From a virus: a stretch of 64,000 nucleotides of DNA. The translations under genes were made by a program, and so were the position numbers. The notes under the pieces were generated by a model, which did not search any database, was not told where the DNA came from, and saw only the letters and a program-made list of their open reading frames with translations. Below, piece after piece: positions 34,461 through 47,863 of the stretch. The stretch lies in UHGV virus genome UHGV-0033546; one strand, given 5' to 3'. Position 1 is the first letter of the stretch. The number at the start of each line of letters is the position of its first letter.

Positions 34461-34468
34461 TATAAATA
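34461..34468 (+). promoter_or_regulatory. late promoter TATAAATA for gene 34
   Basis: TATAAATA 35 nt upstream of gene 34 ATG, with GGAG RBS between. Confidence 0.6.
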
Positions 34469-38380: not shown

Positions 38381-39496
38381 ATGGAAAAATTTATGGCAAA
38401 GTTTGGACAAGGATATGTCCAAACGCCATTTTTATCGGAAAGCAATTCAGTAAGATATAAAATAAGCATAGCGGGTTCTTGCCCGCTTTCTACTGCAGGA
38501 CCATACGTTAAATTTCAAGATAATCCTGTAGGAAGTCAAACATTTAGTGCAGGTCTTCATTTAAGAGTTTTTGACCCTTCCACGGGAGCATTGGTTGATA
38601 GTAAGTCATATGCTTTTTCTACTTCAAATGATACAACATCTGCTGCTTTCGTTAGTTTCATGAATTCTTTTTTAAACAATAGACTTGTTGCTATATTAAC
38701 TAGCGGAAAGGTTAATTTTCCTCCTGAAGTAGTATCTTGGTTAAGAACAGCAGGAACATCTGCTTTTCCATCTGATTCTATATTGTCAAGATTTGATGTA
38801 TCATATGCTGCTTTTTACACTTCTTCTAAAAGAGCTATTGCATTAGAACATGTTAAACTGGGTAATAGAAAAAGCACAGATGACTATCAAACTATATTAG
38901 ATGTAGTATTTGATAGTTTAGAAGATGTTGGAGCGACAGGATTTCCTAAAAGAACATATGAAAGCGTTGAGCAATTTATGTCAGCTGTTGGTGGAACTAA
39001 TAACGAAATTGCGCGTTTACCAACTTCATCCGCGATAAGTAAACTTTCTGACTACAATTTAATTCCTGGAGATGTGCTTTATCTTAAAGCACAACTATAT
39101 GCTGATGCTGATTTACTTGCTCTTGGAACTACGAATATATCCATTCGATTTTATAATGCATCAAATGGATATATTTCCTCAACACATGCTGAGTTTACTG
39201 GACAAGCTGGGTCTTGGGAATTAAAAGAAGATTATGTAGTTGTTCCTGAAAATGCAGTAGGATTTACGATATACGCACAGAGAACTGCACAAGCGGGTCA
39301 AGGCGGTATGAGAAATTTAAGCTTTTCTGAAGTGTCAAGAAATGGCGGCATTTCAAAACCTGCTGAATTTGGCGTCAATGGTATTCGAGTTAATTATATC
39401 TGCGAATCTGCTTCACCTCCGGATATAATGGTACTTCCTACGCAAGCATCGTCTAAAACTGGTAAAGTGTTTGGACAAGAATTTAGAGAAGTTTAA
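38381..39496 (+). CDS. 35: long tail fibre hinge protein gp35
   Basis: 371-aa ORF (T4 gp35 372 aa); GAGG RBS. Confidence 0.9.
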   Translation: MEKFMAKFGQGYVQTPFLSESNSVRYKISIAGSCPLSTAGPYVKFQDNPVGSQTFSAGLHLRVFDPSTGALVDSKSYAFSTSNDTTSAAFVSFMNSFLNNRLVAILTSGKVNFPPEVVSWLRTAGTSAFPSDSILSRFDVSYAAFYTSSKRAIALEHVKLGNRKSTDDYQTILDVVFDSLEDVGATGFPKRTYESVEQFMSAVGGTNNEIARLPTSSAISKLSDYNLIPGDVLYLKAQLYADADLLALGTTNISIRFYNASNGYISSTHAEFTGQAGSWELKEDYVVVPENAVGFTIYAQRTAQAGQGGMRNLSFSEVSRNGGISKPAEFGVNGIRVNYICESASPPDIMVLPTQASSKTGKVFGQEFREV

Positions 39497-39500
39497 ATTG

Positions 39501-39530
39501 AGGGAGCCTTCGGGTTCCCTTTTTCTTTAT
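39501..39530 (+). terminator. rho-independent terminator after gene 35
   Basis: hairpin AGGGAGCC-TTCG-GGTTCCCT followed by TTTTTCTTTAT. Confidence 0.55.
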
Positions 39531-39535
39531 AAATA
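39528..39535 (+). promoter_or_regulatory. late promoter TATAAATA for gene 36
   Basis: TATAAATA 24 nt upstream of gene 36 ATG. Confidence 0.55.
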
Positions 39536-39558: not shown

Positions 39559-40215
39559 ATGGCTGATTTAAAAGTAGGTTCAACAACTGGAGGCTCTGTC
39601 ATTTGGCATCAAGGAAATTTTCCATTGAATCCAGCCGGTGACGATGTACTCTATAAATCATTTAAAATATATTCAGAATACAATAAACCACAAGCTGCTG
39701 ATAATGATTTCGTTTCTAAAGCTAATGGTGGTACTTATTTAAATAAAGTAATTTTTAATAAAGGAATGACTGTTCCTGGTGCTGGGTCAGGTGACAACGG
39801 TATTTTTGCCGGTCCTGGTGATAATGCCACGTATGATACTACAAATATGGATATTGTTTCATGGTATGGTATCGGCTTTAAATCATCACAAGGAACAGCA
39901 GGTAGAACTGTAGTAATTAACACACGAAACGGAGATATTAGCTCAAAGGGTGTAATTGAAGCATCACAAATACGCGCAACTTCATTATCCCCAGTAAATA
40001 ATTATGACCTTACGAGAAAAGATTATGTTGATGGAGCAATAAATATTGTTACAACAAACGCAAACTCTAGGGTGTTACGCTCTGGAGACACTATGACAGG
40101 AAATTTAACTGCGCCAAACCTTTTTTCACAGAATCCTGCATCTCAACCCTCACATGTTCCGCGATTTGACCAAATCGTAATTAAGGATTCTGTTCAAGAT
40201 TTCGGCTATTATTAA
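39559..40215 (+). CDS. 36: long tail fibre distal connector gp36
   Basis: 218-aa ORF (T4 gp36 about 221 aa). Confidence 0.9.
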   Translation: MADLKVGSTTGGSVIWHQGNFPLNPAGDDVLYKSFKIYSEYNKPQAADNDFVSKANGGTYLNKVIFNKGMTVPGAGSGDNGIFAGPGDNATYDTTNMDIVSWYGIGFKSSQGTAGRTVVINTRNGDISSKGVIEASQIRATSLSPVNNYDLTRKDYVDGAINIVTTNANSRVLRSGDTMTGNLTAPNLFSQNPASQPSHVPRFDQIVIKDSVQDFGYY

Positions 40216-40223
40216 GAGGACTT

Positions 40224-43200
40224 ATGGCTACTTTAAAACAAATACAATTTAAAAGAAGCAAAACGGCAGGTCAACGTCCAGCTGCTTCAGTATTAGCCGA
40301 AGGTGAATTGGCTATAAACTTAAAAGACCGTGTACTTTTTACTAAAGATGACCAAGGAAATATTATTGATTTAGGTTTTGCTAAAGGCGGTAGTATTGAC
40401 GGGAATGTTATTCATAAAGGCAATTATAACCAAACTGGCGATTATACTTTAAACGGTACATTCACCCAGACTGGTAATTTTAATTTAACCGGTATTGCTC
40501 GAGTAACTCGTGATATTATTGCTGCTGGCCAGATTATGACTGAAGGCGGAGAACTTATTACAAAAAGTTCAGGTACATCACATGTTCGTTTTTTCGATGG
40601 CAATAGCCGCGAACGCGGAATCATTTTTTCTCCTGCTAATGATGGATTAACTACACAAGTAATTAACATCAGAGTTCAAGATTACAAAGCCGGTTCGGAA
40701 AATACTTTTTCTTTTAGCGGTAATGGTCTTTTCACATCGCCGGAAGTTTCTGCATGGAAATCTATGTCAACTCCCCAGATTTTGACTAACAAAGTCATTA
40801 CTAATAATAAATCTACGAGTGATTATGACATTTATTCGATGGCAGACAATGTTCCACTGTCTGAAAGCACTACTGCTATTAATCATCTACGCGTCATGCG
40901 CAATGCAGTCGGTTCTGGTATTTTCCATGAAGTTAAAGATAATGATGGAATAACTTGGTATAGTGGAGATGGATTAGATGCTTATCTTTGGTCATTTACC
41001 TGGAGCGGCGGAATTAAATCAAGCCACTCAATTTCTATCGGTTTAACACCCGGTAATAAAGATTATTCAATATTAGGACCATCTAGCATTGCTTTAGGAG
41101 ATAATGATACTGGATTTAAATGGCATCAAGACGGATATTATTTCAGCGTTAATAATGGAACAAAAACGTTTTTATTTAGCCCTAGCGAAACAACTAGCCT
41201 AAGAAAATTTGTAGCTGGATATTCTACTAATGGAACCGATTTAACTACTCCTCCGACTGAAAACTATGCTCTTGCTACTGTCGTGACATATCACGACAAT
41301 AACGCGTTTGGAGATGGTCAGACTCTTTTGGGGTATTATCAAGGCGGTAGATATCACCATTATTTTCGTGGAAGAGGAACAACTAATATTAATACCGCTG
41401 GAGGATTATTAGTTACTCCTGGTAATATTGATGTTATTGGCGGTTCTGTTAATATCGATGGTAGAAATAATGCTTCTACATTGCTATTGAAAGGTAACAC
41501 AACTGGTAGTAGTTCTGTGGATAACATGACAATTTCTGTGTGGGGTAATACATTTACTAATCCTAGCGAAGGTAATCGCAAAAATGTCATGGAAATTTCC
41601 GATGCAACTAGCTGGATGAGCTATATTCAAAGACTTACTACTGGTGAAGTAGAAATGAATGTTAACGGTTCATTTGAATCATCTGGTGTTACTGCTGGAA
41701 ATAGAGGAGTTCACACAACAGGTGAAATTTCATCTAGTGCCGTGAATGCACTCCGTATTTGGAATGCAGATTATGGGGCCATTTTTAGACGTTCAGAAGG
41801 TAATCTTCATATTATTCCAACTGCTTATGGTGAAGGCAAAAATGGTGATATTGGTCCACTTCGTCCATTTAGTATTGCTTTGGATACTGGTAAGGTTGTT
41901 ATTCCTGACTTGGATTTAAGTTATGCTTCTTTTGCCGCAAACGGTTATATTAAATTTGGCGGTCATGGCGCAGGTGCCGGCGGTTATGATATTCAGTATG
42001 TTCAAGCGGCTCCTATTTTCCAGGAAATCGATGATGATGCTATAAGCAAATATTATCCTATTGTTAAACAGAAGTTTTTAAATGGTAAAGCCGTTTGGTC
42101 TTTAGGTACTGAAATTAATTCTGGTACATTTGTTTTACATCATTTGAAAGAAGATGGTTCACAAGGCCATACATCAAGATTTAATGCTGACGGTACAGTC
42201 AATTTCCCCGATAACGTTCAAGTCGGTGGTGGTGAAGCTACTATTGCTCGTAATGGTAATATTTTCTCAGATATTTGGAAATCGTTTACTTCAGCAGGAG
42301 ACACTACAAATATTCGCGATGCGATAGCTACTCGTGTTGCCAAAGAAGGCGATACGATGACTGGCAAATTAATCGTTAAAAGAGGCTCTGACGCTATTAA
42401 CATTGCTGCCGATGAAAATGATTCTGGCTATTTACTTGGAACATCGGGTGGAGCGAATTCATGGTACATCGGTAAAGGAGGAGCAGATGACACTGCTTCA
42501 TTTTATAATTTCAAAACTACCGCAGGAATTACTCTTAATAGTGTAGGTGATATTGATTTTAATGTTAAAAATCAATCTACTGCCGCTTCATTAAATTTTT
42601 ATCGTTTATATTTAAATGGAAGACAGTGGACAGCTACACAAGGTCACGGCTATAATAATCAATGGCAAACAGAAGCCCCATTCTTCGTTGACTTTGGCGA
42701 ATCTGTTCCGAAAGATAGTTATATGCCTATAATTAAAGGAAGAAGCCAAATCATTAACGAAGGATATGCCACAAAGGCAGATTTTGGTATTATTCGATTG
42801 GGTGGAAATGCTACTTGGGGAAATGCAGTAATTCGTGTTGGTTCTGCGGAAAGCGGAGATAGCAGTCATCCTAATGCAATATTTGTGTTTCAGGCTAATG
42901 GCGATTTTAAAGCTCCGGCTGGCCTTCGTGCTGGTGTTAACTTGGGTGTCGGCACAATTCCAATATGGGGCGGAGCATCTATCGCCATCGGTGATGATGA
43001 TACCGGTTTAGTTCATGGCGGCGATGGTCGAATTAATATGTATGCTAACGCGCAGCATATTGCATCATGGGGCGCGGGCTATCAATCTCATCCGGGCCTT
43101 TGGGATTCAAATGGGGCTCTTTGGACAGAAGTTGGCAAAGCAATTATTTCTCATGGCCATTTAGTTCAGGCGAATGACAGTTATTCCACATATGTCCGTG

Positions 43201-43550
43201 ATGTTTATGTCCGCTCTGATATTCGTGTTAAAAAGGACCTTGTTAAATTTGAAAATGCTTCTGAGAAGCTTTCTAAAATTAACGGTTACACTTATATGCA
43301 GAAGCGAGGTCTAGATGAAGACGGTAATCAGAAGTGGGAACCTAATGCCGGTTTAATTGCTCAAGAAGTTCAAGCTATTTTACCTGAATTAGTTGAAGGC
43401 GATCAGGATGGTGAAGCTTTACTTCGTTTGAACTATAATGGTGTAATCGGTTTAAATACAGCTGCTATCAATGAGCATACCGCAGAAATTGCAGAACTTA
43501 AATCCGAAATTGAAGAGCTTAAAAAATTAGTTAAATCATTGTTAAAATAA
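40224..43550 (+). CDS. 37: long tail fibre distal subunit gp37 with C-terminal intramolecular chaperone domain
   Basis: 1108-aa ORF; last ~111 aa (from SDIRVKKD at 43215) carry peptidase-S74/IMC-like motifs SDxRx[14 protein letters not shown] and a C-terminal coiled coil. Confidence 0.9.
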
Positions 43551-43554
43551 AATG

Positions 43555-43570
43555 AGGGGCTTCGGCCCCT
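43555..43570 (+). other. GC-rich stem-loop between genes 37 and 38
   Basis: AGGGGC-TTCG-GCCCCT; no T-run follows, GGAGG RBS of gene 38 immediately downstream. Confidence 0.4.
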
Positions 43571-43581
43571 TGGAGGTTTAT

Positions 43582-44376
43582 ATGGCAGTTGAAGGACCGT
43601 GGGTAGGATGGTCTGCAAGGGTACAGACTGGAGACCCTTGGATGGCAGGAGCAGCCGTAAGATTAAGAATGGGTGTTCCGTTTTGGATGAGTAATATGAT
43701 AGGTCGATCTGTTGAAGTAATTCACACACTTGGAGCGGACCATAACTTCAATGGTCAATGGTTCCGAGATAGATGTTTTGAGGCAGGTAGTGCACCTATA
43801 GTGTTTAATATTACCGGAAATTTGGTATCATATTCTAGAGACGTTCCTTTATTCTTTATGTATGGAGATACACCTAATGAATATGTTCAGTTGAATATTG
43901 GTGGTGGCGTCCATATGTGGGGTAGAGGTGGACAAGGTGGATGGACTCATTCCGGCGGAGATGGTAATGGTCAACAAGGTGGTCATTGTATTCAAAATGA
44001 CATCGGTGGACGATTAAGAATTAATAACGGTGGAGTAATTTGCGGCGGAGGTGGAGGCGGAGGTGGTATCGCTTATCGTCCCCACTCTGGTGCAAATTGG
44101 CAAGATATTGGTGGTGGTGGAGGAAGACCATTTGGACCAGGTGGAGGCGGAGGTTATTCCGGCGGCGCAGCTTCTTATGATGGCCCAGGAGGTGGTTATA
44201 ATTATGGTAATGCTCACTCTGGACAAGGTGGTGATGCTGGCGCAAATGGACAAAATGCCTGGCATGATGGCGGTAAAGTACTAAAAGTCGGTGCTGGCGG
44301 AGCTGCTGGTTATGCCGTCATAGGGTCCGCTCCAACATGGCAAAATGTTGGAGTAATATATGGTCCAAGAGTATAA
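43582..44376 (+). CDS. 38: receptor-recognising adhesin gp38 (T2-type, glycine-rich motifs)
   Basis: 264 aa from ATG at 43582 (GGAGG RBS); C-terminal half has poly-Gly blocks [23 protein letters not shown] separated by short variable segments. Confidence 0.8.
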
Positions 44377-44406
44377 TTTGAATAAATACCCTTAAAAGGA
44401 GGGTCT

Positions 44407-45063
44407 ATGGCAGCACCTAGAATATCATTTTCGCCCTCTGATATTCTATTTGGTGTTCTAGATCGCTTGTTCAAAGATAATGCTACCGGGAAAGTTCTTG
44501 CTTCCCGGGTAGCTGTCGTAATTCTTTTGTTTATGATGGCGATTGTTTGGTATAGGGGAGATAGTTTCTTTGAGTACTATAAGCAATCAAAGTATGAAAC
44601 ATACAGTGAAATTATTGAAAAGGAAAGAAATGCACGCTTTGAATCTGTCGCCCTGGAACAACTCCAGATAGTTCATATATCATCTGAGGCAGACTTTAGT
44701 GCGGTGTATTCTTTCCGCCCTAAAAACTTAAACTATTTTGTTGATATTATAGCATATGAAGGAAAATTACCTTCAACAATAAGTGAAAAATCGCTTGGAG
44801 GATATCCTGTTGATAAAACTATGGATGAATATGCAGTTCATTTAAATGGACGTCATTATTATTCCGACTCAAAATTTGCTTTTTTACCAACTAAAAAGCC
44901 TACTCCCGAAATAAACTACATGTACAGTTGTCCATATTTTAATTTGGATAATATCTATGCTGGAACGATAACCATGTACTGGTATAGAAATGATCATATA
45001 AGTAATGACCGCCTTGAATCAATATGTGCTCAGGCGGCCAGAATATTAGGAAGGGCTAAATAA
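44407..45063 (+). CDS. t: holin T
   Basis: 218-aa ORF, same length as T4 holin; one N-terminal TM segment then large periplasmic domain; GGAGGG RBS. Confidence 0.9.
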   Translation: MAAPRISFSPSDILFGVLDRLFKDNATGKVLASRVAVVILLFMMAIVWYRGDSFFEYYKQSKYETYSEIIEKERNARFESVALEQLQIVHISSEADFSAVYSFRPKNLNYFVDIIAYEGKLPSTISEKSLGGYPVDKTMDEYAVHLNGRHYYSDSKFAFLPTKKPTPEINYMYSCPYFNLDNIYAGTITMYWYRNDHISNDRLESICAQAARILGRAK

Positions 45064-45336
45064 TTACTTGTTTGTATACATCTCTAGATATCGATATACA
45101 CCCTCAAAACCCTCGTTGAATTCGTCGATGAGGGTTTTCTTATCTTCCTGAGTTAATTCAGAAACAATTTTACGGAATGAATTCTGATTTAACTTTCTAC
45201 CTTCATGCGTTACTCCAATCTCATTCAGAAATGCAATAAAATTAGCACGATTCTCAACAATATCTTCTCGGGAAAATTTAATCAAAATAGACGCAACAGT
45301 AATAATTTCACGAACTGTATCAATATTTTTATTCAT
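45064..45336 (-). CDS. asiA: anti-sigma70 factor AsiA
   Basis: 90-aa ORF starting MNKNIDTVREIITVASILIKF..., as recalled for T4 AsiA. Confidence 0.9.
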   Translation of the reverse strand: MNKNIDTVREIITVASILIKFSREDIVENRANFIAFLNEIGVTHEGRKLNQNSFRKIVSELTQEDKKTLIDEFNEGFEGVYRYLEMYTNK

Positions 45337-45348
45337 TAACTATACCAC

Positions 45349-45501
45349 TCAATTAGTTGACTTTGTTATAATATCATCAGACGTTTGATTTGTAAACTGG
45401 TCTGCGGTATTTTCTTCAAAAATTTTTTCTACGAATTCTTTGAACGACTTACGTTCCTGAGCTACATTATGCTCGATTACTTTTTCAAGATTATGACTCA
45501 T
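45349..45501 (-). CDS. hypothetical small protein (50 aa)
   Basis: ATG overlaps arn stop (ATGA); not in six-frame track (below length cutoff); its 3-prime end contains the asiA promoter. Confidence 0.35.
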   Translation of the reverse strand: MSHNLEKVIEHNVAQERKSFKEFVEKIFEENTADQFTNQTSDDIITKSTN

Positions 45502-45776
45502 TCGAAATAATCTTCAATTTCGTAATCATGGACATAAATCATTATAGTTTTTAATACATCATCAATACTTTTTCCTGGCGCTGGAATTACATAAAAATAT
45601 CTTGCTTTTGAGAGGTCTTTATAAGTTCCAACCAAGAAATCATTATTCTCGAGATGTAGTTCTTCAACTAATTCATTAACAATTGAATGATATAGATTTG
45701 GTAGAAACTTATATAGCTTTTCTAGAATATCAATTTTGATTGTGTATTGAACCACAGACTGAGAATCAATAATCAT
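45498..45776 (-). CDS. arn: Arn, anti-restriction (McrBC inhibitor)
   Basis: 92-aa ORF in T4 arn position next to asiA. Confidence 0.75.
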   Translation of the reverse strand: MIIDSQSVVQYTIKIDILEKLYKFLPNLYHSIVNELVEELHLENNDFLVGTYKDLSKARYFYVIPAPGKSIDDVLKTIMIYVHDYEIEDYFE

Positions 45777-45854
45777 AGACCTTCCCCCTTATGTTTCTGT
45801 TTGTGATTAGATTCTTTAAACGCTTTCTTCTTATCTTTATGAACAGAAGCTTTA

Positions 45855-46079
45855 TTAAAATTGTGCTTTGCGACTAAATTGTTCATAGTGTTGAATTACC
45901 TCTCTTAAACATTTGCATGTGAATGAAAACTTTTTAGCTACACCACATTCAAATATATGTTCTCTTAAATCACGTGTGTCAGTATATCCCATCTCAACAA
46001 TAAAGTGTCTTATTAGATTTTTATCTTTATCATTGAGAGAATTAAAATAATCGGATTTTGAATTAATTTCCCTGGCCAA
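45855..46079 (-). CDS. hypothetical protein (74 aa from TTG, or 45 aa from first ATG)
   Basis: no ATG at track start; first ATG at 45992. Confidence 0.35.
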   Translation of the reverse strand: MAREINSKSDYFNSLNDKDKNLIRHFIVEMGYTDTRDLREHIFECGVAKKFSFTCKCLREVIQHYEQFSRKAQF

Positions 46080-46359
46080 ATTGAATCACCTTCAGTTGAC
46101 GTTTTAATTCTTTTATCATTTCTTCGTTCATCGCAATATAAAGATCGCGTAAAGCGGGTTTTAGCATTCCATTTACTGGAGAACTAAATGGGCACACATA
46201 ATCTTTTCCTACGAGCCTTTTAGCGAATTCCATATCACAAAACTGAAATGCTGGTTCATTGGCATAAATGCCCCAATTAGTTGACATCATTTTATTGGCA
46301 TATTCCAGTGCCTGGATTTGATTCTTAATTCCATCAATTTGAAACTTTTTAATATTCAT
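46063..46359 (-). CDS. hypothetical protein (98 aa)
   Basis: ATG start. Confidence 0.5.
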   Translation of the reverse strand: MNIKKFQIDGIKNQIQALEYANKMMSTNWGIYANEPAFQFCDMEFAKRLVGKDYVCPFSSPVNGMLKPALRDLYIAMNEEMIKELKRQLKVIQFGQGN

Positions 46360-46820
46360 TAGTAAAGGTCCTCAGAGTAAAGTTCTTTTTCACTACCACC
46401 ACGTTCAATACGTACTTGTCCGGCGTAAGTTGCAATAATCATTGCTTCTTCACGTGTCCAATAATTACTATATTGGTCAATAAACCCTTGGTCATCATCA
46501 CAAACTTGTTGAGTAACTAATTGAGGTTTAACTACATCTAAAACTTCTGCCATATCTTTAGAATAATGACGAGCACCTGGAATAACAAGAGTTCGTCCAT
46601 CTTTTAGTTTAAAACGGTTGGCTGCGCAAACAATTCGTCGTTGATACTTTTGGTTTTCGTCCCAATATGCAGACTGCCAACAAATTTCAGGAACTTCTTT
46701 CAGAATATCTTCTTCTGTGCATTTATAACCATGTGCTTTAAATTTTTCAACAAGACTTTCTGGAGTTTCACGAGATAAAGGAACATTCAGCATTTTTAAA
46801 CGATTAATAAATGGGTTCAT
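46359..46820 (-). CDS. hypothetical protein (153 aa)
   Basis: ATG start, coupled to neighbours. Confidence 0.5.
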
Positions 46821-47146
46821 TTAAACCATCCTTTAATACGCTGCCACAAAGTTTTCTGTTGAGCTTTGTTAACACCAATTGAGCGAATAACTGGTTGAGA
46901 TTCCTGGAATTCTTTATAATCAGCAAGGTAAATTTCGTAAGCCGATTGAACAAAGGTACTAATCGCTGCCATGAAGTTCTTGCGAATTCCCATAGAGGCT
47001 TCAGAACCACCACGGATGATTAAATATTTGCCAGTCTTAATCTTTACGATAGTTCCAAGATAAGCTCCATGGTACCAGATGTCCCATCCCTCTTGAGTGG
47101 GTTCTGCACAACGACGAAGTTCATTAACAATTTCTAACTTGTTCAT
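46817..47146 (-). CDS. hypothetical protein (109 aa)
   Basis: ATG start. Confidence 0.5.
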
Positions 47147-47156
47147 TATTTATTCC

Positions 47157-47792
47157 TCACAGTTCAGATGCTACGGTGATTACTGCTTCAATGTTTTCTG
47201 CTGAGCGTTTAATGTCAAGATACACATTACCGTTTTTAGCAATTTTACATGACATTCCGATATCAGTAAATTTCTGAATATGATGTTCCATCATTTTGTA
47301 TCCAAAAATTCGCATATTTCCATTGTTGTTAATTTCAAAATTGCGAATTCCATGAGTGCGTTTTTCTAAAATAGCAAGATAGTTACTGCGGTAAGTTTCA
47401 ACCTTTTTAAGAACAAATCCATTTTCATCTAAAAGTTTTAACATGAGGTCTTTATCTTCTTCCATATCGGAAGTAATCTCACGAGCTTTACGAGTTGCTC
47501 GTTTTTTCAGAAGTTCCGGAGCATTTTCTTGTGCGTATAAAGTTGCTGCATTTGAAATAATATCCTGGGCTTCACCAGTAATGATTAATCCATCACCTGA
47601 TTTCTCCACCAGGCCTTTTTTAATCAATACCCCAATATTACTATTAACTACTGCGTTACCTAAATCTGGATGCACCTCACGAACTTCTGCAGCTGTAATG
47701 AAATCTTTCTTAGCAATGGTAATTAAAATCGCAGCAGTTTTTTCATTCAGAACATCGTTAGAAGCTTTGATGATGTAAGTTACTTTAGACAT
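47157..47792 (-). CDS. motA: middle-transcription activator MotA
   Basis: 211-aa ORF, same length and position as T4 MotA. Confidence 0.9.
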   Translation of the reverse strand: MSKVTYIIKASNDVLNEKTAAILITIAKKDFITAAEVREVHPDLGNAVVNSNIGVLIKKGLVEKSGDGLIITGEAQDIISNAATLYAQENAPELLKKRATRKAREITSDMEEDKDLMLKLLDENGFVLKKVETYRSNYLAILEKRTHGIRNFEINNNGNMRIFGYKMMEHHIQKFTDIGMSCKIAKNGNVYLDIKRSAENIEAVITVASEL

Positions 47793-47833
47793 TTTCTAAT
47801 CTCCGTAATTCTGTATCAGTAGTTGATAGTTGT

Positions 47834-47863
47834 ATAGTACCACAGTATGCTTTGGTTGTAAAC
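47834..47863 (-). promoter_or_regulatory. T4-type early promoter (motA)
   Basis: - strand GTTTAC (47863-47858), 18 bp, TACTAT (47839-47834); conserved leader ACAACTATCAACTACTG. Confidence 0.5.

Follow-up and report, generated by a model that had tools for sequence, protein, structure and literature searches.

Genes 37 and 38 of a Tequatrovirus genome encode a T2-type long-tail-fibre tip with a predicted self-cleaving gp37 and a chimeric gp38 adhesin of RB32-type specificity, whose most likely receptor is OmpA

Genes 37 and 38 of UHGV virus genome UHGV-0033546, analysed within a stretch of 64,000 nucleotides (the window), very likely constitute a long-tail-fibre tip module of the T2 type, in which gp37 would be trimmed through its own C-terminal Peptidase S74 domain, gp38 would dock on the tip, and loops of gp38 would bind the outer membrane protein OmpA. 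The domain assignments, the conserved motif at the predicted cleavage site, the fold of gp38 and the identities of its loops are the observations that carry this reading. Coordinates of the features are collected in Table 1.

A preliminary description of this DNA, made from the letters alone, had given gp37 a length of 1108 residues and placed an intramolecular chaperone of the Peptidase S74 kind in the last 111, beginning with SDIRVKKD at nt 43215; the sequence bears out both the length and the position (residue 998, 111 residues up to the stop codon), as NC_000866 does the length of about 1026 residues given there for T4 gp37 (1026 residues). The domain itself was found by Pfam: PF13884 (Peptidase_S74, 'chaperone of endosialidase') matches residues 998-1057 (nt 43215-43394; E = 1.1e-12, 48.5 bits where the curated cut-off is 22, with positions 1-57 of the 58-position model covered), and a helical tail follows this core. 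The location is the extreme C-terminus of the distal long-tail-fibre subunit, and more than 30 PHROG tail-fibre families share C-termini matching the last 111 residues of gp37. In the Protein Data Bank (PDB), residues 915-1108 match the gp37 construct 6F45_A of Salmonella phage S16 (E = 2.5e-45), as does the 111-residue domain alone (E = 2.1e-33), the other matches of the single-sequence search with the domain being weak (MYRF, E = 0.017; the tail fibre 8JOV, E = 0.066). A profile built from five sequences (the window phage, T2, T6, S16 and 8JOV) picked up the self-cleaving domain of MYRF (7DC3, E = 1.4e-10) and the GA-1 neck appendage chaperone 3GUD (E = 3.3e-4), and also reached 8JOV, with SDxRxK in register in all three; K1F endosialidase and T5 pb1 were not reached, even by this profile search of the PDB. 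The released GA-1 chaperone chain (3GUD) has the aligned Ser as its residue 1.

The Ser, Asp, Arg and Lys of the S-D-x-R-x-K motif are invariant across the window phage, T2, T6, S16 and 8JOV, the surrounding sequence varying from DVYVR^SDIRVKKD in the window to NVYIR^SDIRLK in T2, DVYIR^SDSRLK in T6 and DLNVS^SDRRIKKD in S16 (the caret marks the aligned junction). Because SDxRxK aligns across these family members, Ser998 and Lys1003 fall where this family has the Ser/Lys(+5) dyad known from K1F endosialidase and T5 pb1. The C-terminal domain of gp37 is thus predicted, by analogy with its homologues, very probably to cleave itself. According to the summary of Dunne 2018 given in PMC7917993, S16 gp37 undergoes autocleavage at the Ser-Ser junction in DLNVS^SDRRIKK after trimerisation, which frees 113 residues and exposes the gp38 docking surface; in the account of Drexler, Riede and Henning 1986 in PMC3157838, T2 and T6 gp37 are shortened by proteolysis before gp38 caps them.

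The product of gene 38 belongs to the family of glycine-rich tip adhesins. It matches Pfam GP38 (PF05268, E = 1.6e-68, 231 bits) and Gp38_N (PF21721, E = 2.4e-19, 69.5 bits), each with a cut-off of 25 bits, as well as phrog_2056 (E = 1.8e-110) and, among PDB entries, PP01 gp38 (9V85, E = 1e-73) and, over its full length, S16 gp38 (6F45_D, E = 1.7e-48). Given the E values for Pfam GP38 in gp38 and for Peptidase_S74 in gp37, the features of the two proteins are not due to chance. The poly-glycine blocks reported in the preliminary description are real, with eight consecutive glycines at residues 155-162, five each at 177-181 and 187-191, and three each at 107-109 and 203-205; the glycine content is 26.5% overall and 36% within residues 110-264, and a peak of GC content and GC skew at 43500-44500 reflects these blocks. 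Five glycine-rich motifs (GRMs) and four variable segments were distinguished. Conservation is 50-100% in the glycine-rich blocks (67-100% without GRM4), whereas the intervening segments share 0-41% identity with those of T2, T6, M1, PP01 and S16. An alignment of 54 gp38 homologues contains invariant glycine columns, and Trp7, Trp20 and Trp35 are conserved in at least 90% of the sequences; the role of the attachment-domain tryptophans is described in PMC7917993. An AlphaFold model of gp38 built on these 54 homologues has a pLDDT of 85.9, and a Foldseek search with it returned only 9V85 (E = 3.9e-26, TM 0.86) and 6F45_D (E = 5.4e-22, TM 0.82) at E < 0.001, the TM scores being normalised on the target. 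The model thus predicts that gp38 folds as a beta-helix plus a polyglycine-II sandwich.

That gp38 should instead be an assembly chaperone outside the virion, in the style of T4, is almost certainly wrong. Some homologues in GenBank are labelled 'distal long tail fiber assembly catalyst', but these labels are inherited from T4 gene numbering. The best BLASTP match to T4 gp38 (183 residues in NC_000866, the length given in the preliminary description) spans 20 residues with E = 0.85, whereas T2-type adhesins align over the full length, and both family and fold are those of solved adhesins; the earlier distinction between this gp38 and the T4 chaperone therefore stands. Other gp38 homologues in GenBank carry the label 'tail protein and peptidase', although the peptidase domain of this module lies in gp37, not in gp38.

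The length of 264 residues proposed for gp38 was likewise upheld, with translation from ATG 43582 to 44376, over that of the mechanically called open reading frame (ORF), which starts at ATG 43552 and would yield 274 residues. In the longer ORF, the match to Pfam Gp38_N sets in only at residue 11, and the upstream start was rejected. The real start is placed at 43582 because of this onset of Gp38_N, the lengths of annotated gp38 relatives (262-265 residues in all cases), the placement of the GGAGG sequence, which precedes 43582 and not 43552, and the position of ATG 43552 in the stem of a predicted hairpin, one base past the gene 37 stop codon. Initiation at 43552 is highly improbable in view of these observations, even though the frame is open from there. 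The hairpin is GC-rich, lies in the 31-nt spacer between genes 37 and 38 directly after the gene 37 stop codon, and overlaps the first base of GGAGG; the fold of 43540-43590 (-15.8 kcal/mol, z = -1.7) is modestly better than those of shuffled sequences.

The receptor predicted for the phage follows from the four variable segments of gp38, the boundaries of which are our own and were drawn from conservation. They were compared with adhesins of known receptor; K3 and Ox2 gp38 did not turn up by name among the homologues found or in ten cluster listings, and M1 and Mi, which use OmpA, took their place as the closest named stand-ins. Against T2 (OmpF/FadL), T6 (Tsx), M1 (OmpA), FL18 (OmpA type 2), PP01 (OmpC) and S16 (OmpC), identity in the four segments is 0-41%. 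RB32 gp38 differs at a single position across residues 105-264 (Lys where the window phage has Asn173), and AV119 and FL08 are also close in every segment (Table 1). The preliminary classification of gp38 as T2-type thus holds for its architecture but not for its specificity, the segments being 0-27% identical to those of T2 and T6 and of the RB32/AV119/FL08 type instead. The accompanying proposal that receptor specificity is determined by the variable segments agrees with published genetics on chimeras of RB5 and RB32 (PMC3157838): RB32, a phage sensitive to lipopolysaccharide (LPS), needs OmpA, and its variable block, when moved into RB5, carries the specificity along. AV119 and FL08 also depend on OmpA (PMC12032242). 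Because the loops are nearly identical to those of the OmpA-dependent phages RB32, AV119 and FL08, OmpA, perhaps with a contribution from LPS, is predicted as the most likely receptor of the window phage.

The attachment domain of gp38 (residues 1-40) has different affinities, being 92% identical to that of O157 typing phage 7, wV7, KIT03 and AV119 versus 55% to that of RB32, and it has three private substitutions (A24, V28 and V34). With an N-terminus like that of wV7, KIT03 and AV119 and residues 105-264 like those of RB32, gp38 is built as a modular chimera such as Trojet et al. describe.

The following sequence of events may be proposed. gp37 would be made as a precursor of 1108 residues, of which Ser998 to Lys1108 would act as an intramolecular chaperone of the S74 family, aiding the trimerisation and folding of three gp37 chains. 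Self-cleavage between Arg997 and Ser998, presumably by way of Ser998 and Lys1003, would then free the chaperone domain and expose a flat tip ending in DVYVR, on which one copy of gp38 would dock by means of the N-terminal domain that carries its tryptophans. In the C-terminal two-thirds of gp38, the five glycine-rich motifs would form a polyglycine-II sandwich, and the four variable loops would jut from it to bind the receptor on the host.

Several points weigh against this scheme. Cleavage, the 3:1 stoichiometry of gp37 and gp38, docking and the receptor are all argued by analogy with relatives; the chaperone fold attributed to the C-terminus of gp37 derives from sequence homology, and a single-sequence AlphaFold model of gp37 residues 910-1108 reached a pLDDT of only 43.5 and was discarded. 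Variable segment 2 (HVS2) differs from that of RB32 in having Asn173 for Lys, and three residues of the attachment domain are substituted. O157:H7 was the isolation host of the closest whole-gene relatives, wV7, KIT03 and O157 typing phage 7, and a literature search for the receptors of wV7 and KIT03 returned host-range data only; PP01, the best-studied T2-type phage of O157, uses OmpC (PMC12892980).

It is very unlikely, to begin with cleavage, that the S74-like domain of gp37 has degenerated and stays uncleaved on the mature fibre. Such a remnant would be compatible with the reliance on relatives for cleavage in this phage and with the unusable structure model of the region, but the Ser and Lys(+5) dyad and the entire SDxRxK motif are intact, and the domain is 97-98% conserved among relatives despite a mosaic upstream fibre. 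Furthermore, cleavage is documented for the T2, T6 and S16 homologues in the accounts given by PMC3157838 and PMC7917993, and an uncleaved domain would mask the docking surface of gp38.

With regard to the receptor, the same architecture could serve an adhesin that targets a protein other than OmpA, such as OmpC, the target of S16 and of the O157 phages PP01 and AR1. The O157:H7 origin of the nearest relatives by whole gp38 (98.5-98.9% identical) would fit this alternative, as would the use of OmpC by PP01 and the ability of single residue changes in the variable segments to switch receptors (PMC12032242, PMC3157838). It is nevertheless unlikely, the segments being only 7-41% identical to those of PP01 and 0-36% to those of S16, but 86-100% identical to those of three phages whose need for OmpA has been demonstrated experimentally (PMC3157838; PMC12032242). 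It is also doubtful, and should be thought of as a minor prospect, that the combination of a wV7/KIT03 attachment domain with an RB32 specificity block, Asn173 and the substitutions A24, V28 and V34 gives the chimera a receptor range unlike that of its parents; if so, this range might comprise OmpA variants of O157 or Salmonella, or entail a dual requirement for OmpA and LPS, and the phage would represent a natural case of host range altered by domain shuffling. OmpA recognition by loops of the RB32 type remains the preferred reading.

Table 1. Features of the long-tail-fibre tip module and its surroundings in the window
Feature	Position (nt)	Strand	Evidence or remarks
T4-type late promoter box TATAAATA before gene 36	39528..39535	+	exact match, 24 nt 5' of the gene 36 ATG
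gp36, small distal half-fibre subunit	39559..40215	+	Pfam Phage_T4_gp36, E = 2.1e-28
Gene 37, long-tail-fibre distal subunit precursor, 1108 residues	40224..43550	+	ORF; phrog_1699 full-length, E = 0
gp37 residues 449-551, domain in common with the gp34 C-terminal trimerisation region	41568..41876	+	Pfam Gp34_trimer, E = 8.7e-9
gp37 residues 915-997, mature fibre distal tip ending DVYVR, predicted gp38 docking surface	42966..43214	+	aligns with S16 gp37 tip 6F45_A
Predicted autocleavage site between Arg997 and Ser998	43212..43217	+	DVYVR^SDIRVKKD aligned with S16 DLNVS^SDRRIKKD
gp37 residues 998-1108, C-terminal intramolecular chaperone / Peptidase S74 domain	43215..43547	+	Pfam PF13884; 6F45_A
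Putative dyad Ser998 and Lys1003	43215-43217 and 43230-43232	+	SDIRVK
Intergenic hairpin with UUCG tetraloop, stem over the spurious ATG 43552-43554	43553..43572	+	RNA fold
Shine-Dalgarno sequence GGAGG	43572..43576	+	5 nt upstream of the gene 38 ATG 43582
Gene 38, T2-type tail fibre tip adhesin, 264 residues	43582..44376	+	Pfam GP38 and Gp38_N
gp38 residues 1-40, N-terminal attachment domain, wV7/KIT03/AV119 type	43582..43701	+	Pfam Gp38_N
Variable segment 1, gp38 residues 120-132	43939..43977	+	100% identical to RB32, AV119 and FL08; 8-15% to T2, T6, M1, PP01 and S16
Variable segment 2, gp38 residues 163-176	44068..44109	+	93% identical to RB32 and AV119, 86% to FL08; 0-14% to T2, T6, M1, PP01 and S16
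Variable segment 3, gp38 residues 192-213	44155..44220	+	100% identical to RB32, 86% to AV119 and FL08; 18-41% to T2, T6, M1, PP01 and S16
Variable segment 4, gp38 residues 224-238	44251..44295	+	100% identical to RB32, 93% to AV119 and FL08; 0-20% to T2, T6, M1, PP01 and S16
Holin t, downstream border of the module	44407..45063	+	Pfam Phage_holin_T, E = 5.4e-117

Comparison with known systems places the module among several relatives, each of which shares part of it. Like the gp37-gp38 tip complex of S16 (PDB 6F45; Dunne et al. 2018), it has a two-gene architecture with the cleavage motif in register and a gp38 that aligns over its full length and shares the predicted fold; unlike S16, which targets OmpC of Salmonella, it has a gp38 that is only about 44% identical, with unrelated variable loops (0-36%), and a gp37 tip with about 12 extra residues inserted ahead of the cleavage site, the domain to be released comprising 111 residues versus 113. 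T2, the archetype, has the same gene order, the C-terminal motif and chaperone domain of gp37, and a glycine-rich gp38 adhesin (262 residues), but its gp37 is longer (1341 residues) and only 16-40% identical past the first 60 residues, and its gp38, 45-46% identical, has other variable segments, with OmpF/FadL as receptor. The gp38 of RB32 and RB33 (OmpA plus LPS; Trojet et al. 2011) has essentially the same specificity domain, with the sole exception of N173 versus K, whereas the N-terminus of RB32 gp38 is of the T6 type, which implies a different partner at the gp37 tip.

The nearest relatives of the whole module are O157 typing phage 7, wV7, KIT03 and Sa45lw, with gp38 proteins 98.5-98.9% identical to that of the window; Sa45lw also has a gp37 of 1108 residues, and its genes 37 and 38 have 94.5% nucleotide identity. 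AV119 and FL08 have similar gp38 proteins (94% and 92% identical, respectively) but differ in gp37, where residues 701-914 are about 50% identical. PP01 gp38 (9V85) is the best structural match (TM 0.86) and is 93% identical in the beta-helix region, but its variable segments are only 7-41% identical and its receptor is OmpC of O157. T4 shares the first 60 residues of gp37 (88% identical) and the fibre organisation to about residue 640; in contrast to the window phage, its gp37 lacks an S74 domain and bears its own receptor-binding tip, and its gp38 is an unrelated chaperone.

By its sequence, gp37 is mosaic in the usual T-even manner. Residues 201-560 are 96-98% identical to AV119, and residues 701-914 (42324-42965) share 97-99% identity with O157 typing phage 7 and Sa45lw versus only about 50% with AV119 and FL08. 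The region at residues 449-551 matches PDB entries 4UXE, 5NXF and 5NXH (E about 1e-13); with the Gp34_trimer module inside gp37, this module is therefore common to the proximal and distal half-fibres. The docking role predicted for the distal tip (residues 915-997) follows Dunne 2018 as summarised in PMC7917993. No identical gp37 was found in the phage collection.

The window phage is a Tequatrovirus (T-even phage), the first 25 kb of the window sharing about 95% identity with teqdroes, among other phages. Its tail fibre block, as read from ORFs and Pfam matches, has the order g34-g35-g36-g37-g38-t, of which g36-g37-g38-t matches T2 and T6, with gene 38 directly 3' of the gene for the S74-bearing gp37 and 5' of the holin gene t. 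Exact TATAAATA boxes are found close upstream of gene 34 (34461-34468; ATG 34503) and of gene 36 (ATG 39559), but a search of the window for exact matches gave none directly upstream of gene 37 or gene 38, which suggests that genes 36, 37 and 38 are cotranscribed. By analogy with T4, the box before gene 36 probably drives their transcription; because the window contains no more TATAAATA boxes than chance would give (7 found versus 8.8 expected), this assignment is based on position. In the same block, the gp35 hinge protein (38381-39496) has a match at residues 58-126 to Pfam ILEI (interleukin-like EMT inducer), which is weak yet above threshold (E = 4.7e-7, 30.7 bits versus a cut-off of 27) and an odd one for such a protein.

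At the DNA level, 639 phage records match the module, the best being Sa45lw and KIT03 at 94.3-94.5% identity over all 4153 bases. A gp38 protein 100% identical to that of the window is present in public assemblies of Logan/ENA, and one Logan contig, ERR7738587 (6214 bp), is identical base for base to positions 41625-47838 of the window; thus, the same phage has been sequenced before.

The system encoded by genes 37 and 38 is already known in all its parts and is a textbook T2-like tip. The mechanism of S74 chaperones has been known since 2007-2010, the processing of T2 gp37 is said to have been known since 1986 through the work of Drexler, Riede and Henning, and the structure of the gp37-gp38 tip reportedly since 2018 through that of Dunne et al. 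The module raises no new mechanistic question. What is added here is a specificity of the RB32/AV119 type, hence probably for OmpA, in place of that of T2 or T6, together with the chimeric make-up of the adhesin. The value of these findings lies in annotation: the host-range determinant of the phage is named and a prediction of OmpA as its receptor is attached to it, which would be useful if the phage were taken up for typing, biocontrol or host-range engineering.

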